Shown here: positions 9,303-57,229 of the stretch, one piece after another
Layout: the number at the start of each line of letters is the position of its first letter
Numbering within the stretch: position 1 is the first letter of the stretch
Source: Candidatus Uhrbacteria bacterium
GTDB lineage: Bacteria; Patescibacteriota; Patescibacteriia; UBA9934
Length of the DNA stretch: 64,000 nucleotides
NCBI GenBank assembly: GCA_963822405.1
Contig: CAWGHH010000001.1
Coordinates: 227,717-291,716, forward strand
Direction: 5' to 3'
Notes under the pieces: generated by a model
Seen by the model: only the letters and a program-made list of their open reading frames with translations
Databases searched by the model: none
What the model was told of the DNA's origin: nothing
Program-made: the position numbers and the translations under genes

Positions 9303-11239
<1,937 letters not shown>

Positions 11240-13200: not shown

Positions 13201-13208
13201 TGTCTGTC

Positions 13209-13296
13209 ATTGCGAGGGGCCCGTCCGCGGGAGCCCGAAGCAACCTTGTGAGATTGCTTCGACCCAGACGATTACGTCTGGTCTCGCAAAGACTGA
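13209..13296 (+). repeat. ~88-bp structured repeat element, copy 1 (intact; TTGCGAG...CTCGCAAAGACTGA with nested hairpins)
   Basis: Matches the sequence that flanks the GIY-YIG gene at 61739-62132 almost identically, except that the central loop here is only 8 nt (ttgtgaga). Confidence 0.5.
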
Positions 13297-25713: not shown

Positions 25714-25770
25714 GAGCCCCGTGGTGATGGGTTTGGCACCGCCAAACCCTTACGTCACGGGGCTTTTGCG
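25714..25770 (+). terminator. nested hairpin/terminator after the giant gene
   Basis: GAGCCCCGTG ... CACGGGGCT followed by TTTTG; the inner palindrome GGGTTTGGCaccGCCAAACCC occupies 25729-25749. Confidence 0.45.
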
Positions 25771-26490
25771 TTACGTGATATTTGGATGGGGATTGGGATT
25801 ATTCCGGTCACGTTCCCATTTGGCGGGGTTTTCGCGGATGTATTCCTGGATTCGTTTTAAATCACTCTTTCCTCTGATAATATGTTCGTAATAATCCCGT
25901 TGCCATAATTTTCCGATTCTTCCAACCTTTCCGAATCGATGACCTTTGGCGTATTCATTATAAAATGCGTTCGTGGTCATCGTCTTGAACCATTGGACGA
26001 AATCCGGAATTCCTTTAAACGCGCTCGCGTCCTCTCCATAACCGGCCGTCCCGGCCGCCGTTGGGGTCGACCCATGCGTCGACCCTTTCCCATCCTCCGA
26101 ACCGTTTTCGGATTTTAACGTCGACCTCTTTTCATTTCTTACCCGCGAAACGATTTCTATAATCCCGTGAAAATGATTGGGCATGGTTACGAATTCATGG
26201 ATACGAATTCCCGGAAATTTCTCCGGTAATTTATTCCAAAATTTATCCACGATCATTCCGTATTCATTTAATTCCATTATCGAAGGTGGATTTGTGCGAG
26301 GGTCGACGCATGGGTCGACCCCAACCTCGCGGATCACGCCGAACCATTCGATTCGGTCTTCGGTGACGGGATTAATAAAATAATATCCGGGTTGGGAGTA
26401 ATCGTATCCCTTTAAACGTAATTCCTTCCTACCGATTTCTTTCCATGAAAACATAAAACCCCATTTGTTTGGCCGATATGCGTCGGTCAT
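25771..26490 (-). CDS. IS200/IS605 family Y1 (HUH) transposase, RAYT-like
   Basis: HUH motif MPNHFHGIIEI and a C-terminal LWQRDYYEHIIR catalytic Tyr region. An insertion-like Gly/Ser-rich segment is present, and a 23-bp inverted repeat pair lies inside the coding sequence. Confidence 0.7.
   Translation of the reverse strand: MTDAYRPNKWGFMFSWKEIGRKELRLKGYDYSQPGYYFINPVTEDRIEWFGVIREVGVDPCVDPRTNPPSIMELNEYGMIVDKFWNKLPEKFPGIRIHEFVTMPNHFHGIIEIVSRVRNEKRSTLKSENGSEDGKGSTHGSTPTAAGTAGYGEDASAFKGIPDFVQWFKTMTTNAFYNEYAKGHRFGKVGRIGKLWQRDYYEHIIRGKSDLKRIQEYIRENPAKWERDRNNPNPHPNIT
26060..26082 (+). repeat. 23-bp palindromic repeat GGGGTCGACCCATGCGTCGACCC (left copy) inside the transposase gene
   Basis: The exact reverse complement is present at 26300-26322; each copy contains the self-complementary GGGTCGACCC. 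Confidence 0.55.
26300..26322 (+). repeat. 23-bp palindromic repeat (right copy, inverted)
   Basis: GGGTCGACGCATGGGTCGACCCC, the reverse complement of 26060-26082; the pair brackets the HUH core of the transposase ORF. Confidence 0.55.
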
Positions 26491-26633
26491 TTACGCCTGG
26501 GGAGTTATCTATATTGCACCATGGATTTTCCTGTGTTGTACGTGCCGTGTGGATATATAAGAAAACCCCGCCATCTCTCCAGAGGGCGGGGCTTGCGTCA
26601 AGCGTGAACTGACGTTCAGTCCTGATTTCCGTT

Positions 26634-27428
26634 TCAGTACTGCCAGTCACACTGGACGTCGGCGACGTATTGGTACGGGCTGTTGTCAACAACCGTCACC
26701 GAGAAACTTTTTCCGAGCACGACCACCGTATTTTCCAGGTAATAGGGGGCGGGTGGGTTACTAGTCTCAGAGGCCTCAACCCCGTTCACCAGAAGAACAA
26801 TTTGATCGTTTTTCAATTGCATTTCATCGCCAGCATGTCCGACGACGCTCATGTTCGGATTATCCTGCGGATGGATTTTTCCATCCTGATCGATCTTGAT
26901 TACCTGATTATCGAGATCGTGATGACCAAAGGATTCACCTTTGTGGCCATCCGCTGACGTGCTGTACCGCCACTTGTCGTACCCGCACGCGTACGTGCCG
27001 GGTTCGATGGTCTTGTGGAGATCGATGCGGACGGGGGCGGGGACGTTCAGCTGAACGGAGAAGTCCACGGGCATGGCGGCCCAGGGGTTTCCTTCGCCGT
27101 CCATGTACACGGGGTAGCCGAACTGGCCGGCTAGCGTCGGATCTCCCGCTTCCGCCGTGTAGTCGCCGGGGGCGTCCACGGGCTGCGTGTCACCGCTCGT
27201 CAGGGAGTAGTCCTTCGTCGGACCATAGAGGTACACGAGGGCATCGTCCGTGACGGAGGTGAGCTTGAAGACGTCCACGGTCACGGGCGCGAAGCCGGTG
27301 ACGGAAGTGTCTCCAGTGTCGCTCGTGTCGCAGGTCTGGCAGGAGTCCGTATCGGTCTCCTGACAGTCTTTGCACGGGTGGCAGGCGGTGAGGAGGGCGA
27401 GGATGCTGATGAAAGGAACGATGCGCAT
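26634..27428 (-). CDS. hypothetical lipoprotein (GC-rich)
   Basis: Lipobox ILALLTAC, then a Cys/Asp/Thr-rich linker (CKDCQETDTDSCQTCDTSDTGDT) and a beta-rich domain. A terminator hairpin lies at 26566-26600 on the coding strand. Confidence 0.5.
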   Translation of the reverse strand: MRIVPFISILALLTACHPCKDCQETDTDSCQTCDTSDTGDTSVTGFAPVTVDVFKLTSVTDDALVYLYGPTKDYSLTSGDTQPVDAPGDYTAEAGDPTLAGQFGYPVYMDGEGNPWAAMPVDFSVQLNVPAPVRIDLHKTIEPGTYACGYDKWRYSTSADGHKGESFGHHDLDNQVIKIDQDGKIHPQDNPNMSVVGHAGDEMQLKNDQIVLLVNGVEASETSNPPAPYYLENTVVVLGKSFSVTVVDNSPYQYVADVQCDWQY

Positions 27429-27693
27429 TGGCGTGTCTCCTGAAAGAAGTGAAGGCTGGGTTTTACCCCGCCCTGGTGAGAACTACGGCCAGGCACTCGC
27501 CCGGCTGGTATGCTGAGATTAGCAGAAAAATGGGAAAAAGTCAACGGATGTGTACAAATAGTGGATTTGGTCGGACAAAAAGGCCTATTTAGAGAAAATA
27601 TCCACAGGATTACAGAGCGGTAGTTTTTAGCTATTTTGTTTGACCTGGCCACGTTGTCCGTATATCGTTACCTGATCATTCTTTATAGAGAGT

Positions 27694-28152
27694 ATGGCCT
27701 GTATTTTTTGTGACATCGTATCGGGGCATGTTCAGTCTTATAAAGTTTGGGAAGATGAAAAGCATCTTGCTTTTTTATCCATTTTTCCTAATACAGTGGG
27801 TGCTACTGTGGTTATACCAAAGAGCCATCACCCGAGTTATGCTTTTGATCTCCAAGATGATGTTTTATGTGATCTAGTGAAGGCTACAAAGCAGGTTGCC
27901 CAGCTTCTTGATAAAAGTTTCGAAGATGTTGGTCGTACGGGCATGGTGTTTGAAGGATTTGGTGTGGACCACGTACACGCGAAACTATTCCCGATGCATG
28001 GCACGAAGATTGCTTCATGGAAAGCTATTCATTCGACGCTGCGTACATTCTATGCAACGTATCCAGGGTATATCGCTTCACACGACGGCGATCGGATGAG
28101 TGACGAGCTCCTTGCGGATACTGCAAAAAAGATAACCGACCTCAATAAATAA
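27694..28152 (+). CDS. HIT family (histidine triad) hydrolase
   Basis: CIFCDIVSG N-terminus and histidine triad VDHVHAKLFP. Confidence 0.8.
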   Translation: MACIFCDIVSGHVQSYKVWEDEKHLAFLSIFPNTVGATVVIPKSHHPSYAFDLQDDVLCDLVKATKQVAQLLDKSFEDVGRTGMVFEGFGVDHVHAKLFPMHGTKIASWKAIHSTLRTFYATYPGYIASHDGDRMSDELLADTAKKITDLNK

Positions 28153-28154
28153 AA

Positions 28155-28192
28155 GGACGGGCCGCACCACTAGGGTACGGCCCGTTTTGTTA
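28155..28192. terminator. bidirectional hairpin terminator between convergent HIT and aaRS genes
   Basis: ACGGGCCG-13 nt-CGGCCCGT followed by TTTTGTT; the complement gives a T-rich run on the other strand. Confidence 0.5.
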
Positions 28193-29506
28193 CGGAGTAA
28201 GCCGATTCACACCTCGGTAAAGGTAGGTCACCTCGCGCACGTTGCCGAGTCCGGTGAGGAGCATTAGCATGCGCGTGAGGCCAAAGCCGAAGCCACCGTG
28301 TGGAGGCATTCCGTACCGGAAGAAGTCGAGATAGAACTGAATGCTTGAGGGGTCCAATCCTTTTTCTATCGCCTGCTCTCGCAGGATGTCGTAGCGATGT
28401 TCGCGCTGTGCACCGCTCGTCACCTCCAAGCCGTTCCAGAGCAGGTCGAAGCTCTTGGTTAGGCTCGGATCGTGGGTGTGTCGCATGTGGTAGAAGGGTC
28501 GGACGCCAATTGGCCAGTCTGTCACGAACACGAACTCGTGTCCATGCTGTTCTTTTACCCATTTGCAGATTAGTTTTTCGCCTTCCGGATCGAGATCGCC
28601 ACCCGCTTCGGGTGGAATCACGTGCCCGAGCCCTTCCAGGATTTCGTAGGCCTTGGCCATGGTGATCCTGGGGAACGGAACTGCGGGTACCACGACTTCT
28701 TTGCCGTAGATCTTTCTGATTTTTTCCCCATGTATTTCAGCCACACGGGCGATAGTATGTGCAATCCACCGTTCTTCGATCGACATGACGTCTTCGTGGG
28801 AATCGACCCAGGCCACTTCGACGTCAACGGAAGTGAATTCCGTATCGTGTCGGATAGTGTGCGATTTGTTCGCGCGGAACACGGGTCCGATCTCGAACAC
28901 GCGGTCGAAACCTGCCGCGATTCCCATCTGCTTGTAGAACTGTGGCGATTGCGCAAGGTACGCAGTACCGCCGAAGTACGGCAGGGAGAACAGTTCGGCT
29001 CCGGATTCGCTGCCGTGGCCCATGAGCTTCGGCGAGTGGATCTCGAGGAAGCCATTCATGGTCCACCATTCGCGCATGGCGTGCTCGGCCGTCGTTTGGA
29101 TCTCGAAGACCAGACGGTTTGCTGGGTTCCGCAGATCCAGAAAGCGCCAGTTCAGGCGATCCTGGAGCTGGGGGTTGATTCCGAGCGGGAGCGGCTTTTC
29201 GGCCGGTCCGACCACCGTGATTTGCTCGGGGATGATCTCCACCCCACCGAGTTTCACCTGGGGGTTGGCTACGAGCCGGCCAGTGATGTCCACGGCGGCC
29301 TCAGGTACCAGCTGGCTCAAGATGGTGGCGAGCTCACTGCCGGCTTCCGGCTTGAAGTACGTCACCTGTACCCAACCGGTATGATCACGCACGACCAGGA
29401 AGGTCATGCGTTTTTTGTCGCGCAGGTGTTCCACCCACCCGCACACCCGTACGATCTGTTCTCCACCGACAAGGGAAAGAGTCCCGATGAGATTCCGCTG
29501 TAACAT
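28190..29506 (-). CDS. class IIb aminoacyl-tRNA synthetase, archaeal/eukaryal-type AspRS/AsnRS-like (aspartate--tRNA ligase likely)
   Basis: N-terminal OB anticodon-binding fold (VRVCGWVEHLRDKKRMTFLVVRD), motif 2 FRANKSHTIRHDTEFTSVDVE, motif 3 GGFGFGLTRMLM. Start set at ATG 29504-29506; the longer ORF-track N-extension is Ser/Cys-rich and unlikely. Confidence 0.7.
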   Translation of the reverse strand: MLQRNLIGTLSLVGGEQIVRVCGWVEHLRDKKRMTFLVVRDHTGWVQVTYFKPEAGSELATILSQLVPEAAVDITGRLVANPQVKLGGVEIIPEQITVVGPAEKPLPLGINPQLQDRLNWRFLDLRNPANRLVFEIQTTAEHAMREWWTMNGFLEIHSPKLMGHGSESGAELFSLPYFGGTAYLAQSPQFYKQMGIAAGFDRVFEIGPVFRANKSHTIRHDTEFTSVDVEVAWVDSHEDVMSIEERWIAHTIARVAEIHGEKIRKIYGKEVVVPAVPFPRITMAKAYEILEGLGHVIPPEAGGDLDPEGEKLICKWVKEQHGHEFVFVTDWPIGVRPFYHMRHTHDPSLTKSFDLLWNGLEVTSGAQREHRYDILREQAIEKGLDPSSIQFYLDFFRYGMPPHGGFGFGLTRMLMLLTGLGNVREVTYLYRGVNRLTP

Positions 29507-29531
29507 TGTGCCTCCTAGAGTTGTACTGATG

Positions 29532-30851
29532 CTACGGATAGACCGAGCGTCGGAAGGTACGAGGGAAGGGGATTGCATCCCGCACATGGTTGATGTTGAG
29601 GAGCCATCGCATGAGGCGTTCGACCCCCATGCCGAAGGCAATATGAGGCACGGGTCCGAATCCGCGCAGGTCTCGAATCCACTCGTACCGGGCGTCGCCC
29701 AGTTTCCCTTTTTCCGCCATTCGTTCGTCAAGCATCGGAAGTCCTACGATCTTTTCAGCTACACCGAGCAGCTCACCATATCCACGTGGAGCAATCAGGT
29801 CAGCAGTTCGCGTTACCTCCGGGTCGTCCGGATCGATAACGTACGGAAAGGGTTCCACCACGCGTGGAATGCCCATGATCCAGAAGGGACCGGTGTAGTT
29901 CTTTGAGAGGATGTCTTCCTCGGCAGAGCTGAGCCCTTTACCAAAGGAGATATCACAGCCCTTAGCCTGCAACTGGCTGATCGCATCGCGATAACGCAGG
30001 CGCGGGAAGGGTCCGTTCAGGCCCTCGGTGGAGTAGGAAGTACCGAGTACTTTGGTCGTCTCTTCTCCACATTCGCGACAGGCATGAGTGAGGCCCGCAA
30101 TGATGTTTTCCACGAGGGCGATAATGTCCTCGAGATCGCCGAACGTGGCTTCTGCCTTGATGTGCCAGTATTCCATGAGGTGCCGCTTGCTCCGGCTTTC
30201 CTCCCCGCGAAAACTGGGACCGATGTTGTAGACTCGCTCGAGCGCATGTGCCGCGCTCTCGAGGTAGTAACCCACGCACTGCGTGAGCAAAACCTTCTCG
30301 CCATTGATTTCGAGTCCGAGCGCGCTATTATCTTCGTAAAGTGGCACCGGCGTCAGGATAGGCGCAGTGATCTCTACGAAGCGATGATCGCGGAACCAGC
30401 GTCGTGCTTCCCAGAGAAGGGAGTCGCGAAACCGCATGATCGCAGCGATTTTCGGATGGCGAAGGTATAGGTGGCGATGCGCGAGCAGGTGATCGCTCAG
30501 ATTAGGATCGAACACGTCGAAGTCCTCCCTGAGCTGTGGCGAGATCTGTTTTGTGGCAGCTGAGATGATGGATAGTGAATCGGCCTTCACTTCCAGGTCC
30601 CGCGTATGTGGGTTCTCTTGTAAGTGACCATCGACTCGTACCGAGCTCTCAACTAGAGCGCGTTTTGCGGCCTCGAAGTCAGCTTCTGGCACTATCGATT
30701 TGTCCATTATGACCTGGATTTTGCCGGTGCTATCCGACACGTCCAGAAAGATTGCTTGTCCATGTCTCCGGCGTGCGGTGAGCCAGCCAAGAAGCGTGAC
30801 AGGCGTCCCGACACCGAGATATTTAAGGTCCTTGACGTAAATACTTTTCAC
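29532..30851 (-). CDS. class IIb aminoacyl-tRNA synthetase paralog (asparagine--tRNA ligase likely)
   Basis: OB fold VTLLGWLTARRRHGQAIFLDV, motif 2 FRGEESRSKRHLMEYWHIKAE, and a C-terminal GMGVERLMRWLL...IPFPR typical of AsnRS/archaeal AspRS. Confidence 0.7.
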   Translation of the reverse strand: MKSIYVKDLKYLGVGTPVTLLGWLTARRRHGQAIFLDVSDSTGKIQVIMDKSIVPEADFEAAKRALVESSVRVDGHLQENPHTRDLEVKADSLSIISAATKQISPQLREDFDVFDPNLSDHLLAHRHLYLRHPKIAAIMRFRDSLLWEARRWFRDHRFVEITAPILTPVPLYEDNSALGLEINGEKVLLTQCVGYYLESAAHALERVYNIGPSFRGEESRSKRHLMEYWHIKAEATFGDLEDIIALVENIIAGLTHACRECGEETTKVLGTSYSTEGLNGPFPRLRYRDAISQLQAKGCDISFGKGLSSAEEDILSKNYTGPFWIMGIPRVVEPFPYVIDPDDPEVTRTADLIAPRGYGELLGVAEKIVGLPMLDERMAEKGKLGDARYEWIRDLRGFGPVPHIAFGMGVERLMRWLLNINHVRDAIPFPRTFRRSVYP

Positions 30852-30959
30852 AACGCACCACCAAGCTTGATTGGTTCATCCAATGCTCCCCTGTGAAGCA
30901 TTCGGACCCTTGATCTTGGCTAAAATGAGAGATTCTGTCAAGCTATCGGAGGAGGTCTC

Positions 30960-31987
30960 ATGGTTCCCATCGATATTCGTGCTTATATGGCGTATACGTT
31001 GGCTTTTACTCCCGAGGAGAATACGCTCCGTGCTGAACTGATGGACTGGCTGCCGGTCGAGATCGTTGATAGTCATGCACACAGCAATATGCCTGAGCAT
31101 GTGTCTTCGGTCGATTCCCGGGCGTACGCCCACATGCTTTCGACGTTCCCCTTTTCTCTTTGGAGGATTCGAAGGCTATGCATCAGCGATTTTTTCCGGG
31201 AAAGAAGGTTCGTGCCTTGCGCTTCTCTCATGTGTTTCGTGGCATTGATCATCGGATCGTGAATTCGTATCTAATTGCCGAAAGTGCATCGACAGATCGC
31301 GTCGCCCTGTACGGGCTGCCGGACGACGAAGAGTATACGGTGGAGGAGTTGCGGACTGGCAGGTACTCGGCTCTTAAAATGTACTACTTGTATCTTGAGC
31401 CTCCGGGTACGGAGATCTATCAGTATTTTCCACCCCGAATCCTCAGGGAGGCAGAGCGTCTAGGAGTGCCGATCATTCTTCATCTGCCGAGGCGCATCAC
31501 GCAGTGTCTGCCGGATCTTCTTCGTCTGATCTCAGACTTCCCTCGTCTCACAGTGGTGCTCGCGCATCTGGGTCTTACCAAGATGCCCGTTCCTGGCCTC
31601 GCGGAGGCGTATGCATCTGTAGCCGTGCACGACAATATCTTCATGGATACAGCAATGGTGCCGAGTGCCGAAGTCGTAAAGATGGCACTCGCCGCTTTTG
31701 GGAGTAAGCGCATCCTTTTTGGTTCTGACGAACCTGTGAGTATGGTTCGTGCAGTTGTGTATGCCCATCCAGATTTGGGTCAGCGCCTGATCACAGAATA
31801 CCCATATCACTGGGTAAATCCAGAAGAGCATCGGAGTTTCAGGCATTTGGCTAAAGGAGCAATGCACGGTCTGTGGCCTGCACTGCGAGCCATCAAAGAA
31901 GCAGTCGAATCATTGGATGAGGAAGAGCGGTCTAAAGCTAGACAACGCATCTTTCACAACAACGCGGTCAAAGTGTTTGGCTTCTAA
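30960..31987 (+). pseudogene. amidohydrolase-2 family metal-dependent hydrolase, reading frame broken near 31150-31200
   Basis: The N-terminal IVDSHAH metal-binding motif is in frame 0 (30960-31262). The TIM-barrel remainder (PIILHLPRR...VLAHLG...LFGSDEP) is in frame 2 (31160-31987), and a T6 run lies at 31190-31195. Confidence 0.5.
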
Positions 31988-32040
31988 GTAAGTACAACGA
32001 TAAAGACCCCGGACACGTCGTGCTCCGGGGTCACCTTTTT

Positions 32041-33039
32041 ATGAAGAGTTTAAAGTATCTAATAATTTTTGGAGCCTCACTAGTCGTTTTAATCACGATC
32101 GGTACTTTTGTGTATTCAGAATTGCACGCCCCATCTCTTGAAAGAGACTTGATATCGACCGGAGTGCACGCCGATATCGGGGTTATTGGTTACGACGGGG
32201 AAGGTGACATGACCGCTAGTGACGGCGCTCGTATTCATTATTGGTTTTATAACAGAGGTAGTAAGCTGGTTACGGTATTTTTCCATGGAGGCCCCGGTCA
32301 TGGTTCTGAGGATTTTAGAGTTTGGCAGGCGGAGGCTCATGCAGATGAGATCGGTTCTATATTGGTATTTGATCAGCGGGGGAGTGGCGAATCGGAAATG
32401 CGAAAGGAATTTGAAAATACAATTACCTTTGATCGCTATATTCAAGACATTGATGAATTACGAAATTATGTTATTCCGAACAACGAGGTGGTCATTTTTG
32501 GTCGATCATTTGGTGGACTTTTGGCTATGAACTACGCCAACTCGCAGCCGATCGGTGTTAAGGGCTACATGATTGTTGCCCCTGAACCAATGAACATGTA
32601 TGGAGATGAAGATCTAGATGAAGCTTTTACTAAAAAATACACAGAAAAGTATTTATGGGATCAGTTTGTGGCGGATTCCAATCTCATCTATAAGAGAGTT
32701 AACGATAGTGGGTACGTTGAGCCGGTAGTGAAAGAGCTAACTCATGAGGAGATTAGAATTGAGGAAGAAACTCAGCTTGATTTTAATAAAGCGATTGAGC
32801 AAAACATGCCGGAATTAAAGGATGATAATTATCATTTAGTTGCCGCATTGGCAGATGTACCAACTTTGGTGGTATTCGGATCATACGATTTTATGGTTCC
32901 GCCATTTGTGATTGAAAAAATGAAACCATATTTACCGCACGCCACATTTCTTGAACTCGAAGGTAGCCATTTTGTGGCCTATGCACTTCAGGACGAATTT
33001 TTTGCTGGGGTAAAAACATTTTTCGAAAGCTTAAAATAA
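32041..33039 (+). CDS. alpha/beta hydrolase, proline iminopeptidase (S33)-like
   Basis: N-terminal signal/anchor, HGGPG oxyanion motif (VFFHGGPGHGS) and GRSFGG nucleophile elbow. Confidence 0.7.
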   Translation: MKSLKYLIIFGASLVVLITIGTFVYSELHAPSLERDLISTGVHADIGVIGYDGEGDMTASDGARIHYWFYNRGSKLVTVFFHGGPGHGSEDFRVWQAEAHADEIGSILVFDQRGSGESEMRKEFENTITFDRYIQDIDELRNYVIPNNEVVIFGRSFGGLLAMNYANSQPIGVKGYMIVAPEPMNMYGDEDLDEAFTKKYTEKYLWDQFVADSNLIYKRVNDSGYVEPVVKELTHEEIRIEEETQLDFNKAIEQNMPELKDDNYHLVAALADVPTLVVFGSYDFMVPPFVIEKMKPYLPHATFLELEGSHFVAYALQDEFFAGVKTFFESLK

Positions 33040-33086
33040 TCCCATTAACAGGCTATTTTTCTGTTTTTGCCTAAACTAAACCGCAC

Positions 33087-33407
33087 CTATGAGAGGTGCG
33101 GGGCGACGGCGAGCGCGGAAGGCTGCCGATTTACGTGGTTGTAGTAGTGTACTTGGCCGATCGCGTAAAGTGCGAAAGCGATGCAGGGGATTTGCGGGTA
33201 CACGATGTAGTAGGTCCCGTCATGGAGGCCGGCGAGGATCCAGAGGATGCAGGCGCCAACCGTCCAGTACTGCTTACGGGCGGACATGCCCTTTGTTGAT
33301 CCGAGTTTGCGGTTGATCTTGATTTGATCGACCATGCCGTCGAAGATGATGCCAAGTTGGAATGCGCTAGCCAGATTACCAATGGTCAGCAGATCGATGA
33401 GATGCAT
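33087..33407 (-). CDS. hypothetical small membrane protein
   Basis: 106-aa ORF with 3 predicted TM helices. The overlapping + strand ORFs are GC-driven and regarded as spurious. Confidence 0.35.
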   Translation of the reverse strand: MHLIDLLTIGNLASAFQLGIIFDGMVDQIKINRKLGSTKGMSARKQYWTVGACILWILAGLHDGTYYIVYPQIPCIAFALYAIGQVHYYNHVNRQPSALAVAPHLS

Positions 33408-33569
33408 GAGTTACTCCTGTTTAAACATTTCATGATAGCACAAAATGAGGGTTTTGTCAACCAAAAAAGCTGTAATTTTCGCTGTTATTAGCGATTATAT
33501 GAGTGCTCCGGAATAACCGGTACCATTATTTTATTGTGTTTGGTATCTTATGGTCGCGAATAACACATA

Positions 33570-33905
33570 ATGAGGGGGTGGCCTGTGATTTCAGCATTGG
33601 TGTTGTTTGTTATGACGTTCGTTGGGATAGCGTGGAACTCATTTGACGTGTATTTGCTGTCCTATCGTCTGGTTAAGCTGGGACCCAGCCAGTATATCGA
33701 AACAAATCGTGTACAGGTGATGCTCGGTGGAATGTTTGTTATATGGTCCTACCAGTGGGGCGTAGTTTATGAACATTCCATCGGTGCTAGTCCGTATTTT
33801 CTGATGATGCGGGCTATTCTGCTCATTGCATCCATCGTACAGATGATTGGTATTGTCACGTATTTCCTTCTCTTGCGAAAGTTTAAGATAGAGAATAAGT
33901 CTTAA
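33570..33905 (+). CDS. hypothetical small membrane protein
   Basis: 111-aa ORF with 3 predicted TM helices (ISALVLFVMTFVGIAW; MLGGMFVIWSYQW; AILLIASIVQMIGIVTYFLLL). Confidence 0.35.
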   Translation: MRGWPVISALVLFVMTFVGIAWNSFDVYLLSYRLVKLGPSQYIETNRVQVMLGGMFVIWSYQWGVVYEHSIGASPYFLMMRAILLIASIVQMIGIVTYFLLLRKFKIENKS

Positions 33906-33971
33906 AGTTACGTCACGGGCGTCAGCCTCGAGATACACTCGGGGCTTTTCTTTTTCTTATCCCCAGACTCT

Positions 33972-33985
33972 GTCGGTGGTCACCG
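33972..33985 (+). promoter_or_regulatory. palindromic site GTCGGTG-gt-CACCG (copy 1) upstream of the M23 peptidase gene
   Basis: A near-identical 16-bp palindrome recurs at 34027-34042, 55 bp downstream. Confidence 0.3.
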
Positions 33986-34026
33986 GCAGGCTATTGTCAT
34001 GGTCGAATTGAGGATTTGAAATAGTT

Positions 34027-34042
34027 GTCGGTGGTCACCGAC
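34027..34042 (+). promoter_or_regulatory. palindromic site GTCGGTG-gt-CACCGAC (copy 2)
   Basis: Perfect 7-bp arms around a GT centre; direct repeat of 33972-33985. Confidence 0.3.
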
Positions 34043-34419
34043 ATGTATTGGTTCTGCGCTCGTTGAGCGTATTTTTGTTTCAAGGCTTAATGGCTTTAGA
34101 ACGTTCTACGCCAGCCGGCCAGCTGGCAACACGCCTGGCATAGCCGGGCAAGCAACTGAACATCTAATGCGTCCTAACTGAACAAAAGGGAAGGACACCT
34201 TGGAGAGCAGAAGCGATTATGACTTGTAGATGACTGCCGGGAATGGAGCTTTAACTGGGGAGTTTGGCTCTATTCCCGTTCTCGATAGGAGGAAATACCG
34301 ACCTCTATCTCCTCTCTCTCCTCGTGTCGGCATTGGATTCTTCTCTCCGAACGTTAGTTCGTACTCCCATATCGTTCGGGGTGGAATAATCTTCCCCAAT
34401 TACTTGTTTGGAGGATCTC

Positions 34420-36174
34420 ATGGATCGTCAGTATCGTCCGGTGTTCTTCCTGGTCAGTGTATTCCTTCAGGGTTGTGGCCCTCAGTATGCGCTCGACCAA
34501 GCGTTGGACGAGCAGAACGGAACGGCCGAAAACAATGGAGAAGGCGGTGGTACGGATGTGATCGTGGCTAATATGCCCTTTGCGAAGGGCTATGGCAGCC
34601 GGTGTGTGCAGGGCGCGAATGGCTCCTACTCGCATCAGTACACGAGCACGAAGTACGACCTCGACTTCGATACGCCGAACGACACGAAGGACCTCATCTA
34701 CGCGCCTATGAGCGGAACCGCGTATGTCCACGATGACGGAACGCACGGCTTCGGCCGGCACGTGAACCTGGATCTGCACGACGGCACGTACCTCATCATG
34801 GGGCACATGTCTGACGTGTTCATTCAAAACGGGACTGACGTGGCTGCGGGACAGATCCTGGGGTTTGAAGGAACCACGGGAAACTCGACCGGCGATCACG
34901 TGCACTTTGGACGGCATTCGGGCGACGCCAAGAAGGCGGGTAGCTACGGCGCCAGTTTGTCTGGGCTGAAGGTCAGAATGTTCGACGTGAACACGAACGT
35001 GGACGCGGACGTCATGACAAGTGACGCGACGTGCTCGCTCTCCGGCGGCCATCTGTATAAGTCGGAACTGCCGACTGCGCACTGGCATCCGGTGGGTACG
35101 TTCCTCAAGCGTCCGGGCGATTCGCTCGTGTTCGAGCGGGTGACGGGAAACGGCGTGCTCGCCTACATGAACGAGAACGCGTTTCTCTCCCGGGGTTACA
35201 GCTTTACGGACGTGGCCCTCATGTCCGATGAGGAGCTGGCCTGTTACTCCAGGGCGGTGACCGTTTCCAGCGCGGGTTACGTGCGGGCGCTACGGGATTC
35301 CAGTGGCGACGCCTGGATTCTCATTGGCCAGACGAACGACTCTGGGCGAAAGCGTCTTCGGGTGGACGAGACTGGCGTGGTGGGGATTCTGCAGAGCTAC
35401 GGTATCAGGGCGAGTTCGTATGACGACATCGATCACGGCGCTGACTCGGAAATCAGTTCGTACCCGAGCGCGGGGCGGGCGAGTTACCGGGACGGAACGC
35501 TGGTCTCCCAAGAAGGGAAGAGCGACGTGTACATCATGAACGCTGGCGTGGCCATGCCCATTCGGGACTGGAATACGCTACTCCTCATGGGGTTCAGCGG
35601 TCGGGACATTATTCGGGTGACCGGCGACGAGCTCCTGACGAACGTCACGTCAAAGGGCAACTGCAGTACGGACACGTATTGCATCACGAAAGAAGATATT
35701 ACCGAGTGCGCTCACACAGAGGAGGTTGACGATGCGAACGAATTCGAAACGGATTCAGGAACTGGTGCGCAGGGGAATGATGATTCGGGAGGGAACCAAG
35801 ATTCGGCAGTGGCAGATCAAGCGTTTACGCTTCAGTGGGTCACGCCGAATCGGCTGCTGGCTGATTGGATCACGGTAGCTGGTACCTGGACCCCGGCGTC
35901 CGGGGAAACCATCGGCTGGGATCCTATGCTGGCCGGCGTGCACAACGCGAACTCCGTCATCTACAGCAAACACAGCGTGAGTCACGGCGACAAATTCCGT
36001 TTCTCCATGGCCTACGGCTTGGGGAGCGCAGAATCCTGGTCATGCTTGGCACCTTTTCCGCCGGGCATCACTCGGGGCTCGCTCGTGACCGAAGTGGACG
36101 GTGTCTCCGTTTCCGTGCACACCGTGGCGGATCCAAATTCCGCCGGGTGTCAGCTTGAACTCGTCATTCCGTAG
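34420..36174 (+). CDS. M23 family metallopeptidase lipoprotein with long C-terminal extension
   Basis: Lipobox FLQGC. LytM-type catalytic motifs: HDGTHGFGRH.N.D (HxxxD; last D inferred from the translation) and GDHVHFG (HxH). An ~350-aa C-terminal domain of unknown function follows. Confidence 0.7.
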   Translation: MDRQYRPVFFLVSVFLQGCGPQYALDQALDEQNGTAENNGEGGGTDVIVANMPFAKGYGSRCVQGANGSYSHQYTSTKYDLDFDTPNDTKDLIYAPMSGTAYVHDDGTHGFGRHVNLDLHDGTYLIMGHMSDVFIQNGTDVAAGQILGFEGTTGNSTGDHVHFGRHSGDAKKAGSYGASLSGLKVRMFDVNTNVDADVMTSDATCSLSGGHLYKSELPTAHWHPVGTFLKRPGDSLVFERVTGNGVLAYMNENAFLSRGYSFTDVALMSDEELACYSRAVTVSSAGYVRALRDSSGDAWILIGQTNDSGRKRLRVDETGVVGILQSYGIRASSYDDIDHGADSEISSYPSAGRASYRDGTLVSQEGKSDVYIMNAGVAMPIRDWNTLLLMGFSGRDIIRVTGDELLTNVTSKGNCSTDTYCITKEDITECAHTEEVDDANEFETDSGTGAQGNDDSGGNQDSAVADQAFTLQWVTPNRLLADWITVAGTWTPASGETIGWDPMLAGVHNANSVIYSKHSVSHGDKFRFSMAYGLGSAESWSCLAPFPPGITRGSLVTEVDGVSVSVHTVADPNSAGCQLELVIP

Positions 36175-36242
36175 AACTCGTGGGACGCTCATGGAATATC
36201 CGTGAGCGTCCTAACTTTTTTTCATGATATAATTCACTCGCT

Positions 36243-39194
36243 ATGCACATTAGACCGTTCCTGCGGTCACTACTAAGTTTCTTTTCTCGTCACAAGGGAG
36301 CAATAATGATTGCGTCTCTATTTTTGGTCGTCGGTATTTCATTGTTCGGCGGGGCTCACATGGTTTCGGCGCAGGACTTGGGTACATCTGATCCAACAAC
36401 CGGCGAGTCCTCGTCAGCGGTTGGCACTGCCGCGAAGACAGCGGCGGCAATATTTTCTGGTGCGACTTTTGTGAACACCGTTTTAAGTGCCTTGACCTAT
36501 ATTCTTAACTATATAGTCATTGCTCTTGGAAAAATTACCATCTTGCTGATTGAGATAATCATCATTCCAATTTTAAACTACAATTCTTTTTCTTCAAGCC
36601 CGATTATTGGTCTTGGCTGGTCACTAGTACGTGACGTGATGAACATGTTTGTGATTGTGGCTTTGATTGCAATTGCCGTTTTAACCATCGTCGGCAATCA
36701 CAAAGCTCACTGGGAGCAACAGCTACCACAATTACTTATTGCGGTTGTGCTCATGAATTTTAGTCGAACAATCTGTGGACTATTTATTGATGTCAGTCAG
36801 GTGATCATGTTTACATTCGTTAATGCTTTGCTCGATATTGCTTCCGGCAACTTTATTCAGCTCTTCCAGCTTCAGGATTTTGGTAAGTTAAATCCCGTCA
36901 CTATCACCGCCTCTATAGTTGACGGCAATGGTTTTGATCCGTTCAGGCAATTCATTGAGGCATTTCTACAGATTCCTCTGTATGGTTCCATTGTTGCCAT
37001 CTTGTTCTTACTCGCTCTCGCGTTTCTTTACCGTATCGTTCTCCTCTGGATCCTGGTCATCTTGTCACCAATGGCCTTTTTCATGGGTGGTATTAAGGGA
37101 ATTTTTCATGGCGCAGAAAAATCTGCTGGTGACTGGTGGGGCAAGTTCACCGGCGCTCTCATGATGGGGCCTATTCTTACTTTCTTCCTCTGGCTTGCTC
37201 TGGCCGCTGCTTCAAGCGGTTCTATGGCCACGGCCGAGCATTTTGATGCTGCCACAGCCGGTGACACTACATTCTTCGTAGCCGCTCTTGACTCTAGTCA
37301 CGTAACTAGTCTTCTTCTTGCTCTCATTCTCCTCACAGTCGGCATGCAAATTGCCGGCGAACAGGCCAGCAAAGTTGGTGGCGCCGCCGCTTCACTTATT
37401 AATGAAGGTATGGGCAAGAAAGTTGTGGGCGGCGCGCTTAGGATGTCTACTGCTCCTATGCGATATGCGGCCACTGAAGGTGCGGCTAGAGCTAATATTG
37501 CGCTTGCTCCGACCGGATCAAAGTCGCTCATGGAAGGTGTCGGTAAGAAGATCGTTGGCGCAGGCGCGGCCGTTGGTGGAGTTCCATTGCTTGGTGCAGG
37601 TTTAGCTTCCATGGGCGGTGCAGCTGAAACATATGGAGCCAGTGTCCGTAAGGGACGTGAAGAGGCTGCTGTTAAGGCTTTCGCCGGTCAGAGTGAATCG
37701 CAAAAAATGGCTACGGTTGACATGATGGAGAAGAATCCTGGTCGATCTTCGGTAGAGGATCAGAAAGCCGTACAGAAGTCTTATCTTGATGATAAATTTA
37801 GAAAAGACAGAGAGAAGCATCTTGTTGACGGCGGTATGAATCCGGATGTTGCCAAGAAGAACGTTGAAGATAAATTCATTTCTACACTTTCCGGAGATCT
37901 TGAAAAGGTAGACACCTTGCCGGAAGCTGAGCAGACAAAGGTTTACGGCATGGCAAGCAAGAATATTGCTAAGATTTATAATAGCGGACCAAAGGGTGAA
38001 GAGATGGCCAAGAAGCTTATTGCTGGTGACAAGTTTGTGACCAGTAAGTTATACGATCAGGCTGAGGCTTTTGACGAAGTAAAAAATCCTGGAGTAGCTA
38101 AGCTTATTAAGGGCAAGCCAACCGACAAGATGAAACGCAATAAGGACGGCGAAATAATCGGAGCATATACGCAGGGAGAATTGGCCGCAACTGGTCAGTA
38201 TGGGCAGAAAGTTAAGGACATGGTTAATCCAACCGTCGCGCCAACTGTCCGTCAGCAGGCACATTTTGAAGAGCTCAAAACACAGGGCAGTGATGCGGGT
38301 GCATTTAAAGAGGCATTTGATAAAGAGAAAATTAGTGTTGCTGACGTTAAGGCTGGGGATTTTGCGGGCGACAGGGGAAATCAATTAACACAAGCGCTTG
38401 TGAGCGCAAAAGTTAATGTCGATAATCTTGGAGCTGGATCGTTCGATCCTTCCGTAGCTACCAATCCAGTTAGACAAGAGTTCGTAAAGAATGTTGTTTC
38501 TCAGCAAAAGGCCCAGGTTATCACTAGTGCGCTATCAAGCGGGAAAGTTACTTTGGCCGAGGTTAAGGAGTCTGACTTCACAGGTGCTACTACAGCTCAG
38601 AAATTTGAGCTAACGCGTGGCATTGTTGGAGCTGACGATACTTTGAAGGAGGAATACATGGATCCGCAGGTTCGTGACGCATTTGCGACTTCCGTGTCTG
38701 AGATGGGGTCTTTGGGTGTTCTCGGTCAGGAAGATGTGGCAGTAGCACAAGGAATGCTTCTTAGAGCTGGTAAGCCGGTGGAGGAGGTATTGCCAACGAT
38801 CCACTTGAGTCCAGTTGCTCTACCATCGTCATCTCAAGATCTTAGTCGCTTAGGTCAGCTTGTAAAGAATGATGCTGGAACTGCTAGGCATTTTGCTCCG
38901 GCGGTACCAGCAGATCTTGCAGCTCCAAATGAGATTACTAAGGTTATTTCTGAAAACATCAAGCCTGCTCAACTCAAGAAGTTAGTAGAGCAGATTTTGT
39001 CGGCTAAGGATGATCAAATGAAGGCTCAATCACGGGCGAGTCTTGAGACTATTGCTAAAGCGGTTGAAGTCCAGCATGCAGCGGCTCAAAGGCAGGCTTA
39101 TCTTCCTGGTGCTGGGAATGCCACAAAGCGTCAGCGTCTTAATGATTTGCACGATCAACTTTCTGAAACGATGCACACTGTGCGTTCGCTGTAA
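36243..39194 (+). CDS. large polytopic membrane protein, VirB6/TrbL/PrgH-like (T4SS channel component candidate)
   Basis: Signal sequence plus ~7 TM helices in the first 380 aa, then an ~600-aa Lys/Ala-rich hydrophilic C-terminal region. It lies upstream of PrgI-like and VirB4-like genes. Confidence 0.4.
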   Translation: MHIRPFLRSLLSFFSRHKGAIMIASLFLVVGISLFGGAHMVSAQDLGTSDPTTGESSSAVGTAAKTAAAIFSGATFVNTVLSALTYILNYIVIALGKITILLIEIIIIPILNYNSFSSSPIIGLGWSLVRDVMNMFVIVALIAIAVLTIVGNHKAHWEQQLPQLLIAVVLMNFSRTICGLFIDVSQVIMFTFVNALLDIASGNFIQLFQLQDFGKLNPVTITASIVDGNGFDPFRQFIEAFLQIPLYGSIVAILFLLALAFLYRIVLLWILVILSPMAFFMGGIKGIFHGAEKSAGDWWGKFTGALMMGPILTFFLWLALAAASSGSMATAEHFDAATAGDTTFFVAALDSSHVTSLLLALILLTVGMQIAGEQASKVGGAAASLINEGMGKKVVGGALRMSTAPMRYAATEGAARANIALAPTGSKSLMEGVGKKIVGAGAAVGGVPLLGAGLASMGGAAETYGASVRKGREEAAVKAFAGQSESQKMATVDMMEKNPGRSSVEDQKAVQKSYLDDKFRKDREKHLVDGGMNPDVAKKNVEDKFISTLSGDLEKVDTLPEAEQTKVYGMASKNIAKIYNSGPKGEEMAKKLIAGDKFVTSKLYDQAEAFDEVKNPGVAKLIKGKPTDKMKRNKDGEIIGAYTQGELAATGQYGQKVKDMVNPTVAPTVRQQAHFEELKTQGSDAGAFKEAFDKEKISVADVKAGDFAGDRGNQLTQALVSAKVNVDNLGAGSFDPSVATNPVRQEFVKNVVSQQKAQVITSALSSGKVTLAEVKESDFTGATTAQKFELTRGIVGADDTLKEEYMDPQVRDAFATSVSEMGSLGVLGQEDVAVAQGMLLRAGKPVEEVLPTIHLSPVALPSSSQDLSRLGQLVKNDAGTARHFAPAVPADLAAPNEITKVISENIKPAQLKKLVEQILSAKDDQMKAQSRASLETIAKAVEVQHAAAQRQAYLPGAGNATKRQRLNDLHDQLSETMHTVRSL

Positions 39195-39212
39195 TTGTGA
39201 GGGACTAACCGT

Positions 39213-40859
39213 ATGGCTATTGCTGACCTGCTCAAAATTCCACCGGTCCGTTCCTTTCTGTTGGGAGGCAAGAGCCTTGCTGAATTTAGGGTTGTCGCTA
39301 AAAACAATGATTTACCAGTTGAGCGCGCAGTTGAATTCCTTGATTTGTGTAATGCAGTAATTGATGGGGCGTTGCCAATGGCGGAGGTGCCGGGGATTAT
39401 TGCGCAGGCGTTTGGGAAGGATGAGGAGACGGCTAAAAAGATTTCGGCGGATATTTTTGGGTATCGAATTTTGCCACTTGAACCGTTTATTCCTGGGATT
39501 GGTGCGCAGATCACGGCTTGGGGCGGAAAATTGGAAGACTATCCAGCTAGACCGATTAGCAAAGAGCAAATTACCGCCTTTTCATGGGCGCAGAGGATGA
39601 ATGAGCTTGCTAATCTTGGATTTTCAGATGTGCTTGTGAAGCGTTTAGCCTTACTTCTTGATGGTCGAATTAGAGGCGAGAAAAATGCTGAAGCACTAAG
39701 AACATTTTTCGGTAGGCCGTTGACTATTGGTGGTTTAGCTTTATTGAAGGAAAAAGTTGAAGCTTTGTTGGCAGAAGTAGAGCGTGAGGCACCGTATATT
39801 GAAACAGTATCTGAAGAAGAATGGCAGAAGATAGAAATTGCAAAGGCTGAGGCGGAGGCTGCGGAAGAGGTGGAGGAATCGGCGGAGGGGTTTGGCGACG
39901 CCAAACCCGTACAACAGGAGGTGGCATTGTCGCAGGCTATAGAAATCGCCCCGCCAAAAGAATTAGCAGCAGAGGTGCCGTCAACGGTTGGTTTTGTGCC
40001 GGATAATTTAAAAGAAGTTGTTGATGAAGCTATAGATGCAGTAAAAGAAATACTTTTAGCAGAGAATATTTCTTTGGATAAATTCCGGTCACTAGCTCAG
40101 ATGAATATTAGAGGTGTTCGCGAACCAGGCCAGACGCGGGATATTCTTGAGAAAGAATACAAGTTAGCTGGCGCTGATTTGCGTGTAGTGTTGGATGCGC
40201 TAGCCGCCGGCAAGAAGAGATTTGATTTGGCGAAGGGGTTTGGCGGCGCCAAACCCGTACATAGCGAGGTGCCCGAAGGGCATAATCAGAATGAGTCCAA
40301 GGAATCGAGTGCCCTCGACCAAAAATTTGCGCAACTCACTAAGACCTTGCCGGAAGAATCCATTGAACCAATCATGCCGGGGTCAAGAGTATCGGCGGCG
40401 CGGGACACTCAATCACCCTCGACCAAGAAAATCATTCCTCTTAAGCCTAGGCCAGCCAAGGCTGAGTTAACTGTTGGTAGCGTTGCTCCAGGGGCTGTTG
40501 ATCGAAAGATGACTGACATAGTTCAGGCCTCGCGTTTAATGGGGCCAGTTGATCAGATTCAGAGCTTGTCGACAACTGAGTTTAGGCGCATGTCCAGTGA
40601 TCCCGCTGAGGCTGCGCGGAAAGTGGAAGATTTAATTATTGCGCTGTTAGCTACTGGCTATGAAGAGCGAGTGAGCGGTATTAATGCTTGGCGTAAGAGT
40701 CCTTTGAACCAGATGTATCTAGAGATTTCTGAAGAAGCACTAGGTGCCGGCATGACCATTCCGGATATTTGCAGCAAGCGCCGTAAAGAAAAAAGAGACT
40801 GTTTGAGCCCGGCGGAAATTAAAGCGATTATTGGACTTAATGCCAAGCTGAGATTTTAA
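39213..40859 (+). CDS. hypothetical acidic soluble protein (T4SS-cluster associated)
   Basis: 548 aa, no TM helices. Contains an internal ~44-bp direct repeat, each copy holding the GGGTTTGGCGnCGCCAAACCC palindrome (encoding GFGDAKPV and GFGGAKPV). Confidence 0.4.
   Translation: MAIADLLKIPPVRSFLLGGKSLAEFRVVAKNNDLPVERAVEFLDLCNAVIDGALPMAEVPGIIAQAFGKDEETAKKISADIFGYRILPLEPFIPGIGAQITAWGGKLEDYPARPISKEQITAFSWAQRMNELANLGFSDVLVKRLALLLDGRIRGEKNAEALRTFFGRPLTIGGLALLKEKVEALLAEVEREAPYIETVSEEEWQKIEIAKAEAEAAEEVEESAEGFGDAKPVQQEVALSQAIEIAPPKELAAEVPSTVGFVPDNLKEVVDEAIDAVKEILLAENISLDKFRSLAQMNIRGVREPGQTRDILEKEYKLAGADLRVVLDALAAGKKRFDLAKGFGGAKPVHSEVPEGHNQNESKESSALDQKFAQLTKTLPEESIEPIMPGSRVSAARDTQSPSTKKIIPLKPRPAKAELTVGSVAPGAVDRKMTDIVQASRLMGPVDQIQSLSTTEFRRMSSDPAEAARKVEDLIIALLATGYEERVSGINAWRKSPLNQMYLEISEEALGAGMTIPDICSKRRKEKRDCLSPAEIKAIIGLNAKLRF
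39888..39908 (+). repeat. palindrome GGGTTTGGCGaCGCCAAACCC (in frame inside CDS)
   Basis: Perfect 10-bp arms; the same core is found at 25729-25749 and 40236-40256. Confidence 0.5.
40236..40256 (+). repeat. palindrome GGGTTTGGCGgCGCCAAACCC (in frame inside CDS)
   Basis: Second intragenic copy, 348 bp downstream of the first. Confidence 0.5.
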
Positions 40860-43955: not shown

Positions 43956-44519
43956 ATGACCAGAAAAAGTGAAATCGGTTTAGCTGTTGGAGTTTTAGTC
44001 TTATTGATTATTGTTGTTATTGCATTCATGCTTCGTCAGCCGGTAAAGTCTGCCATCGTGAGCGACGCAAGCGTCGTGCCAATCACCACTTCGAATGGTA
44101 CGCAGCTTCCCCCTCCCGGGGGGATAGAGGGGGTCGTTCCCGCGCCCGTTGCCAATCCTCAAACCGCTACCATGATTTTCGTTGAACGGTTTTCGAGCTA
44201 TTCGTCAGAATCTAATTTTGCGAATGTGAAAGATGTGTTGTCACTTGTGACAGCTAGCTTATCTACTAAGATCCAGGCTGTAGCCACTGAACAACGTGCG
44301 AAGGGAATAGATCAAGCCTATTACGGGATATCGACTAAAGTTATTTCACAGAACGTGCAGGAACAGACGGACACAGTCGCTACTATCATAGTTAGCACCC
44401 AACGAGCTGAGTCGATCGGCAGTCCAAGTAACGCCACTGTTCGTTATCAAGATGTTACAGTTAAGCTCATAAAAGAAGGCGAAGCATGGAAAGTGGACGA
44501 TTTCACCTGGGCAATTTAG
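43956..44519 (+). CDS. membrane-anchored hypothetical protein (end of T4SS-like cluster)
   Basis: N-terminal TM anchor LAVGVLVLLIIVVIAFML. Carries a GC-rich palindromic insert encoding PPPGGIEGVVPAP. Confidence 0.4.
   Translation: MTRKSEIGLAVGVLVLLIIVVIAFMLRQPVKSAIVSDASVVPITTSNGTQLPPPGGIEGVVPAPVANPQTATMIFVERFSSYSSESNFANVKDVLSLVTASLSTKIQAVATEQRAKGIDQAYYGISTKVISQNVQEQTDTVATIIVSTQRAESIGSPSNATVRYQDVTVKLIKEGEAWKVDDFTWAI
44107..44135 (+). repeat. GC-rich palindromic element TTCCCCCTCCCGGGGGGATAGAGGGGGTC (in frame)
   Basis: CCCCCTC/GAGGGGG inverted termini; same family as 44998-45056 and (reverse complement) 63293-63322. Confidence 0.5.
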
Positions 44520-56059: not shown

Positions 56060-56067
56060 GTTTTCCT

Positions 56068-57215: not shown

Positions 57216-57229
57216 TGGTTTCGTTTGGC

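Follow-up and report, generated by a model that had tools for sequence, protein, structure and literature searches.

A candidate REP-type hairpin element in a terminator loop and in coding linkers of a Patescibacteria genome

A stretch of 64,000 nucleotides (nt) from Candidatus Uhrbacteria bacterium (assembly GCA_963822405.1, contig CAWGHH010000001.1, positions 227,717 to 291,716), referred to here as the window, was analysed with regard to a 21-nt palindrome, designated family 2, which is proposed to represent a small element of the repetitive extragenic palindromic (REP) type. The palindrome occurs at two loci in the window. The first is the interval between a 2963-aa open reading frame (ORF 16812-25703), here called the giant gene, and a convergent gene on the minus strand (25771..26490) encoding a RayT-like Y1 (HUH) transposase. 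The second is a plus-strand ORF of 548 aa (39213..40859), here called the host ORF, which matches no Pfam or NCBIfam family and is located directly upstream of PrgI, TraC-like and VirB4/TraG-like genes, i.e. in a type IV secretion system (T4SS)-like cluster. A related palindrome is present in an ABC-exporter ORF (48177-49937).

Family 2 was defined as GGGTTTGGC-NNN-GCCAAACCC (also written GGGTTTGGCNNNGCCAAACCC) and is represented by three copies in the window, compared with 0.01 copies expected from shuffled sequences, none of 100 shuffles reaching three. All three were located at the sites assigned to them in a preliminary description of this DNA. Copy 1 (25729..25749; GGGTTTGGCACCGCCAAACCC) possesses 9-bp arms and an ACC loop (9+3+9), forms the inner stem of a hairpin between the giant gene and the transposase gene, and reads GTAA-GGGTTTGGCGGTGCCAAACCC on the minus strand. 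Copies 2 and 3, both on the plus strand, are 10+1+10 palindromes in frame 0 of the host ORF, copy 2 (39888..39908; GGGTTTGGCGACGCCAAACCC; flanks GGAG...GTAC) encoding GFGDAKP (residues 226-232) in a stretch termed linker 1, and copy 3 (40236..40256; GGGTTTGGCGGCGCCAAACCC; flanks GAAG...GTAC) encoding GFGGAKP (residues 342-348) in linker 2. The earlier statement that the intragenic copies preserve the reading frame was borne out. The claim of a perfect 21-bp palindrome at all three sites applies to copies 2 and 3, but copy 1 deviates from the consensus then proposed at position 10 (A, not G), and the direct repeat of ~44 bp encoding GFG(D/G)AKPV was recovered with its peptide as a 48-nt repeat of 83% identity (40/48 nt; family D3).

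A wider class of palindromes, GGGnnnGGCnnnGCCnnnCCC (architecture GGG-nnn-GGC-loop-GCC-nnn-CCC), has four matches in the window against 0.02 expected, the fourth being located in the ABC-exporter ORF (48906-48926). As DNA, the class hairpins were predicted to fold with energies of -10 to -17 kcal/mol, with perfect arms of 9-10 bp and loops of 1-3 nt. At gathering thresholds, Rfam models matched only three tRNAs in the window and none of the palindromes. No target-site duplication was observed around any of the window copies, and the element consists entirely of one hairpin, which sets it apart from miniature inverted-repeat transposable elements. An assembly artefact was ruled out, as copies 2 and 3 are present unchanged in an independent assembly (Logan contig L001), and a function as DNA uptake sequence was ruled out by a density that is far too low.

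To place the intragenic copies in an evolutionary context, the host protein was aligned with 22 orthologues; a profile scan of metagenomes with this alignment yielded 21 loci, mostly distant. Two stretches of the protein are hypervariable, and each of them contains one of the peptides. GFGxAKP was found at neither linker in any of the 22 orthologues, including all those at 62-75% identity, which is in agreement with the two copies being lineage-specific. At linker 2, the interval between the anchors GKK and LDQKF comprises 32 residues in the window and 25 in each of the palindrome-free orthologues P0003, P0005 and P0006, the seven surplus residues being exactly GFGGAKP. Linker 1 varies irregularly in length among orthologues, so that no clean gain figure can be given and insertion boundaries are not fixable there. 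An AlphaFold model built on the orthologue alignment assigned a predicted local distance difference test score (pLDDT) below 50 to residues 221-262 and 343-360, segments that contain both peptides and are placed between confident helical domains.

The preliminary description had named one outcome that would speak against its own proposal, namely an ancient internal protein repeat (GFGxAKPV) whose amino acids are conserved while its DNA has diverged, maintained by selection on the protein, in which case the transposase-side copy would be coincidental. The occurrence of GFDDAKPV at linker 1 of a 55%-identical orthologue (P0008, locus L122) is in line with such a repeat. It is nevertheless contradicted by the absence of the peptide from closer relatives and by P0009, which is 89% identical to P0008 and carries a different palindrome at linker 1. 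Furthermore, the likeness between copies 2 and 3 resides in the DNA (20/21 nt identical, with arms that are perfect palindromes), the peptides occupy regions predicted to be disordered, the same linkers hold other palindrome families in relatives, and the orthologue tree described below requires two gains or at least five losses. An ancient protein repeat is consequently considered highly improbable, and the comparison of sequences supports a REP-type element instead.

Palindromes of several kinds were observed at the corresponding positions in related genomes. Linker 1 was found to hold CTCTCCCAGGATGGGAGAG in L151 (encoding P0009), CTCCCCCTTACGAAGGGGGAG in L127, and imperfect CCCCC/GGGGG-type palindromes, related to window repeats at 44102-44135 and 63293-63319, in L124 and L152. 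In L122 it contains family 2 with a single mutation in one of the arms (GGGTTTGACGACGCCAAACCC-GTAC), which specifies the GFDDAKPV peptide mentioned above. A 73%-identical orthologue (P0002, L120) carries GCGGGGTTTTAAACCCCGC, read as GGVLNPA, at both linkers (L120 10671-10689 and 11016-11034), and in L150 (P0004) linker 1 is empty and linker 2 holds a decayed palindrome of the L120 type (~5700-5718). As a separate observation, the paired palindrome of L120 mirrors the pair in the window, but is derived from another family. Overall, some hairpin is present at linker 1 in 7 of the 13 orthologues examined, and linker 2 of relatives contains one other palindrome family or none (none in L152, L124, L122 and L151).

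In a neighbour-joining tree, the window protein was placed beside P0002-P0004, and P0008 beside P0009. Given these placements, the presence of family 2 at linker 1 in both the window and L122 is best read as two separate gains, the other option being at least five losses. The loci L122 and L151 share near-identical DNA flanks around the linker and differ only in what these enclose, 49 nt in L122 and 64 nt in L151 that are unrelated to each other, indicative of rapid, cassette-like turnover. The linkers thus appear, on this comparison, to be hot spots for several palindrome families. Different REPs near the same site of orthologous genes have been described for Xanthomonas recB (PMC3733652).

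An alternative explanation for the pair in the host ORF is that a single palindrome arrived there and that its second copy was generated within the gene, ~48 nt having been duplicated or gene-converted between similar Glu/Lys-rich linkers. Such copying would account for the 40 of 48 nt shared by copies 2 and 3, including non-palindromic flanks, and a spread between linkers is suggested by L120, with the same palindrome at both, and by L150, with its decayed copy at linker 2 and empty linker 1. Conversely, linker 2 shows a net gain of exactly 21 nt instead of 48. Five class copies, moreover, have similar eight-base left flanks, at 48906 (TGGTGTAG), in L122 (TGGTGGAG), at copy 2 (CGGCGGAG), at copy 3 (TGGCGAAG) and at copy 1 (TGGTGAT), and of these YGGYGKAG-like flanks those at 48906, at copy 1 and in L122 are found in unrelated contexts. 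The bases preceding copy 3 (GGCGAAG) are similar to the ancestral codons for Y-D-G-E-K in orthologues (GGCGAAAAG) and may therefore be target DNA, not copied DNA, which suggests, from few cases, that the left flank reflects a target preference and is not part of the element. Intragenic copying of this type is regarded as rather unlikely.

The fourth class member, GTAG-GGGCAAGGCGCCGCCTTGCCC-GTAC (48906..48926, minus strand), specifies residues 338-344 of the ABC exporter, GQGGALP, in frame 0. This is an exact gain of seven residues relative to 12 orthologues, some of which are 78-80% identical. The transmembrane and ATPase domains are separated by a variable stretch, in which the insert is located, and an outer stem extends the hairpin to ~41 nt (predicted DNA fold of -16.9 kcal/mol, z = -5.5). 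Linker 2 and the exporter hence provide two independent comparisons of filled and empty sites, each with a net gain of 21 nt, as long as the palindrome itself. Read in frame 0 on either strand, the class sequence GGGnnnGGCnnnGCCnnnCCC gives G-x-G-x-A-x-P and lacks a stop codon except where a variable triplet supplies one; all three intragenic window copies use this frame, a statistically weak observation at n=3. Since the 21-nt core amounts to seven open codons in frame 0, an in-frame copy in a flexible linker would be tolerated.

The hairpin containing copy 1 (25714..25765, plus strand) is nested and followed by TTTT, is located between the convergent giant and RayT-like genes, and was predicted to fold as RNA at -37.5 kcal/mol (z = -5.0). 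It probably constitutes a bidirectional terminator, and was not flagged by a simple terminator scan. Copy 1 is located 25 nt past the stop of the giant gene (25703) and 21 nt from the stop-codon end of the transposase gene (25771), close to the end of the latter as previously described, at a distance then given as 20 bp. REPs are typically found between convergent genes and near 3' ends, and copy 1, at ~20 nt from both 3' ends, fits this preference (PMC3733652). In L148 and L149, a plain hairpin (AATCGAGCC-nnnn-GGCTCGATT) is common to the giant gene and the RayT gene, and L120 and L146 possess other plain hairpins at this position; copy 1 is missing from the orthologous intergenic hairpin in all four. 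The window retains the left arm AATCGAGCC, and ~42 nt (CCGTGGTGAT-[family 2]-TTACGTCACGG) occupy the loop of the ancestral hairpin. Copy 1 is thus a recent, lineage-specific insertion into the terminator loop, and its closeness to the RayT gene is accordingly recent. The copies at 25729, at 48906 and in L122 are each nested in an outer stem, these outer stems being unrelated in sequence.

The hairpins might instead be kept for use by the host, as terminator, RNA-stabilising stem-loop, operon pause site or Gly/Pro hinge, with mobility being past or irrelevant. The two convergent genes are separated by a single hairpin, which has copy 1 at its core and a run of T residues after it, REPs between convergent genes near 3' ends are thought to be RNA elements (PMC3733652), and the frequent presence of some hairpin at linker 1 (7/13 orthologues) would be consistent with a retained function. 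However, relatives terminate these genes with a plain hairpin that lacks such an element, no hairpin is present at linker 1 in L150 or at linker 2 in L152, L124, L122 and L151, the copies in L122 and L150 are decaying, and no Rfam family was matched. Retention for a host function is accordingly judged to be quite unlikely.

The RayT-like protein contains an HFH motif (residues 106-108) and a WQRDYYEH motif, its true start being probably the internal MFSWKE, and it matches Pfam Y1_Tnp at 29.5 bits (cut-off 23). Many of its 3557 homologues carry the JGI name 'REP element-mobilizing transposase RayT'. Four related genomes (L120, L146/L147, L148 and L149) have the gene in the syntenic position, likewise facing the giant gene. 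It is apparently confined to a single locus in relatives, resembling the REP-associated tyrosine transposases (RAYTs), which are single-locus and apparently vertically inherited (PMC3116915). No second RayT was found in the window or in related loci, which represent only part of each genome. In three Patescibacteria homologues (P0046-P0048; L146 10001-10618), the YY of WQRDYYEH is replaced by FH (WQKKFHDR), and one of these is from the genome with the mutated family-2 copy in L122; such FH-type homologues may be inactive if a replaced Tyr is catalytic.

The RayT-like ORF itself harbours palindromes of another family, designated family 1 (GGGTCGAC-n6-GTCGACCC, often with a GTAG head). The first, GGGTCGACCCATGCGTCGACCC (26060..26086), encodes GSTHGSTP and the second (26299..26325) GVDPCVDP, the two being arms of a perfect 27-nt inverted repeat and positioned in inverted orientation on either side of the HUH motif. 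RayT homologues at 44-69% identity retain both peptides, GVDPCVDP and GSTHGSTPT. In L148 (~3740-3775) and L149 (~9955-9990), another family-1 copy, the third, is located just upstream of the RayT start; it is decayed in the window, where it is read as an N-terminal extension, MTDAYRPNKWGF. Families 1 and 2 share a GGG...CCC foot and a GTAG or GTAC tag. The retention of REP-like hairpins by a RayT gene in its own coding sequence may merit separate study.

The distribution of family 2 in other genomes was assessed in a palindrome scan of one genome per species, in which Cyanobacteria and Chloroflexota metagenome-assembled genomes made up most of the matches listed. Among these, the family-2 palindrome was present in more than 118 stretches, with many copies per genome, and 123 copies with readable flanks displayed GTAG on the left in 43 cases and CTAC on the right in 51, at least one of the two being present in 68. 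The GTAG tag defines the largest REP super-family, with Cyanobacteria and Chloroflexi among its hosts (PMC3733652). A tblastn search of palindrome-bearing loci with the RayT protein identified homologues in L068, L038 and L041, and also in Patescibacteria L128. In L068 and L038, a family-2 copy is in frame directly after the HUH motif (...HIHGILIM..(D)GRGLAxPNP), and in L128 GTAA-GGGTAGGGCCGAGCCCTACCC-TTAC is located 6 nt upstream of the RayT ORF. Across ~430 kb of related Patescibacteria loci, the class was observed only in the L120 RayT gene (two copies), beside the L128 RayT gene and in the L122 linker. On account of the positions in L068, L038, L120 and L128, the class is linked to RayT-type Y1 genes beyond what proximity in the window shows, in keeping with the relationship to the transposase that had been proposed initially. 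The peptides that the three frames of family 2 would specify (GFGxAKP, GLAxPNP and VWxxQT) and the generic GxGxAxP had no matches in the 120 best RayT homologues; internal family-2 copies are thus not a feature of the closest RayTs.

These data leave room for a tentative alternative in which the hairpins are mobile but not moved by the adjacent RayT, being handled instead by another RayT paralogue or by replication or repair processes that copy hairpins into hairpin loops. Family 1 accounts for the conserved palindromes within this RayT gene and upstream of it, so that the cognate enzyme of family 2 may be a different RayT, or none, and the RayT homologues with an internal family-2 copy in other phyla are ~30-37% identical and represent different proteins. 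The nesting of copy 1 and of the 48906 and L122 copies in unrelated outer stems would also be in line with such copying, as would a nested insertion in another repeat family (44993-45056). Against this alternative stand the GGG...CCC foot and GTAG/GTAC tag shared by all families, which make it plausible that one enzyme accepts all of them, and the lack of a second RayT in the window or in related loci (a fraction of each genome being visible). A mover other than the neighbouring RayT is regarded as possible, if somewhat unlikely.

The preferred reading, to which a probability of about two in three is assigned, is that the 21-nt sequence represents a small REP-type hairpin element, GTAG-like or GTAC-tagged and mobilised by a RayT-type enzyme, which survives at low-harm sites including coding linkers. 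The element would fold in single-stranded DNA, with a RayT-type Y1 (HUH) transposase presumably mobilising it in trans. In a gene-dense Patescibacteria genome, the copies that survive would be those doing little harm, such sites being a terminator loop, two disordered linkers of a T4SS-like-cluster protein and a variable stretch of an ABC exporter. We infer that RayT transposition, that by the neighbouring RayT in particular, placed the palindromes; the link between family 2 and RayT is plausible but unproven. With two of the three family-2 copies, and three of the four class members, inside ORFs, the window copies depart from the predominantly extragenic location of REPs, intragenic REPs being a minority behaviour that includes double inserts in one ORF (PMC3733652).

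Several observations weigh against this reading. Only three family-2 copies are visible in the 64-kb window, and the family is almost absent from the ~430 kb of related Patescibacteria loci. The left flanks in the window are GGAG, GAAG and TGAT, not GTAG, and the right flanks GTAC, GTAC and TTAC; GTAC is not among the degenerate REP tags listed in PMC3733652. All window copies are singlets, and no inverted REP doublets (REPINs) were found among them, copies 2 and 3 being spaced 348 nt apart with the same flank orientation; of the REP/REPIN-like nature originally suggested, the REP-type element stands, as opposed to a protein repeat, but the REPIN structure does not. The best NCBIfam model for the transposase, REP_Tyr_transpos, scored 48 bits, below its cut-off of 80, and the palindromes conserved in and upstream of its gene are of family 1, not family 2. 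The proximity of copy 1 to the transposase gene, on which the preliminary description had relied, is weak evidence in itself, given that the copy was newly inserted into the only intergenic hairpin there and that this could simply be one of the few intergenic hairpins available. Finally, the shared flanks of copies 2 and 3 (40/48 nt) make intragenic copying of one of them possible, and no excision or insertion event was observed.

A more far-reaching joint reading, considered speculative and on the whole unlikely, would combine three elements: the bare 21-nt hairpin as the inserted unit that re-colonises linkers, a RayT clade that targets itself, and a modular REP code shared across phyla. Insertion would then take place either 3' of a GGYGRAG-like target or within a hairpin loop already present, and a coding-compatible module would repeatedly return to the same disordered linkers. 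A widespread RayT clade with hairpins in its own ORF, flanking the HUH motif, suggests an enzyme that acts on, or regulates, its own gene. The code, consisting of fixed GGG/GGC clamps and variable triplets, would extend over Patescibacteria, Chloroflexota and Cyanobacteria.

On the preferred reading of a RayT-mobilised hairpin, REP/RayT-type elements would be extended to the reduced, gene-dense genomes of Patescibacteria, for which no published description of REP/RayT systems was found; a literature search for the palindrome sequence matched only unrelated primers. With little intergenic space available, surviving copies would end up as seven-residue inserts in disordered linkers, and the filled and empty sites in close relatives offer unusually clean examples of a 21-nt gain. 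The linker hot spot in a conserved T4SS-like-cluster protein represents a possible strain marker and a natural test of RayT target choice. For annotation purposes, such elements would account for short Gly/Ala/Pro-rich, lineage-specific inserts in otherwise conserved proteins.

Further repeats were observed in the window and in related loci. A third repeat family, GCAGCTTCCCCCTCCCGGGGGGATAGAGGGGGTC, is located at 44102-44135, 44993-45056 and 63293-63319; relative to 44102-44135, its copy at 44993-45056 is split by 22 nt (44993-45013 and 45036-45056), which suggests a nested insertion, and imperfect relatives are present at linker 1 of L124 (~10680-10715) and L152 (10699-10718). A perfect palindrome, CCCCCTCCACTTCGTGGAGGGGG (15866-15888), is located in the C-terminal tail of an rRNA adenine dimethylase ORF (15291-16085), and the similar CTCCCCCTTACGAAGGGGGAG is repeated in L127, at 10721-10741 (linker 1 of the orthologue) and 15822-15844. 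The adjacent units GTCATTGCGAGGGGCCCGTCCGCGGGAGCCCGAAGCAACCT and TGAGATTGCTTCGACCCAGACGATTACGTCTGGTCTCGCAAAGACTGA, which probably correspond to the first palindrome family of the preliminary description, recur ~48 kb apart with 83-90% identity (13206-13296, 61735-61775 and 62083-62130). Inverted repeats of 29-34 nt (~90% match; 56036-56071 and 57164-57226) bracket a MerR/helix-turn-helix gene (56366-57091, minus strand) and may represent paired terminators or, alternatively, delimit a small mobile unit. In addition, a 130-nt direct repeat of 91% identity (58795-58924 and 60521-60650) is positioned near the 5' ends of two neighbouring minus-strand ORFs (57230-58492/58311-58949 and 58930-60648), which match no Pfam family and may be paralogues.

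GTAG-tagged REPs and REPtrons, which Nunvar et al. reportedly described in 2010, resemble the present element in several respects. They comprise short GC-rich stem-loops, whose loop measures 2-3 nt and whose end bears a GTAG-like tetranucleotide, occur as several families per genome in association with RayT genes, and prefer sites between convergent genes near 3' ends (Di Nocera et al. 2013, PMC3733652). They also include occasional in-frame intragenic copies, at times two per ORF, with different REPs at similar sites of orthologues, and have been reported in Cyanobacteria and Chloroflexi, where the family-2 palindrome is multi-copy (PMC3733652). By contrast, the host considered here belongs to the Patescibacteria, or candidate phyla radiation (CPR), the bordering tetranucleotides are GTAC or TTAC at one end and GGAG or GAAG at the opposite end instead of GTAG, copy number is apparently low with most visible copies intragenic, and the RayT has another palindrome family in its own ORF.

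The REPIN-RAYT systems (Bertels & Rainey 2011, PMC3116915) are similar in that the RayT is found at one syntenic position, which suggests vertical inheritance, and in that short palindromes are dispersed. They differ in their inverted doublets; here, the apparent gained unit is a single 21-nt hairpin, and there is no sign of a population of tens to hundreds. Rickettsia palindromic elements (RPEs) were reportedly described by Ogata et al. in 2000; the classic RPE-1 type measures roughly 100-150 bp and adds ~30-50 residues, and RPEs are not known to have a dedicated transposase. Like the copies reported here, RPEs are in-frame palindromic repeats in a small, gene-dense genome, with the encoded peptide in a tolerated region (discussed in PMC3733652). 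With a 21-nt core, seven codons and a Patescibacteria host, the present element is nevertheless set apart from RPEs by description, and its behaviour is analogous only.

Small dispersed repeats (SDRs) of Nostocales cyanobacteria reportedly described by Elhai et al. in 2008, are mobile-looking palindromes of ~21-27 nt, often nested in one another; they are not known to be linked to a RayT, and most SDRs are intergenic. Compared by description only, SDRs are similar to the present element in palindrome size (~21-27 nt) and in nesting. The IS200/IS605 family serves as a mechanistic model. The Y1 HUH enzyme TnpA of IS608 acts on single-stranded DNA, where it recognises a hairpin together with a neighbouring tetranucleotide, and insertion takes place 3' of a short, specific target that is not duplicated. 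The YGGYGKAG-like left flanks observed here are compatible with such target choice; unlike IS608, the present element contains no gene, and its tag is GTAC/GTAG as opposed to TTAC. Overall, the behaviour of the 21-nt hairpin matches that of known GTAG REPs and Rickettsia palindromic elements, here in a host group for which no published account of such elements was found.

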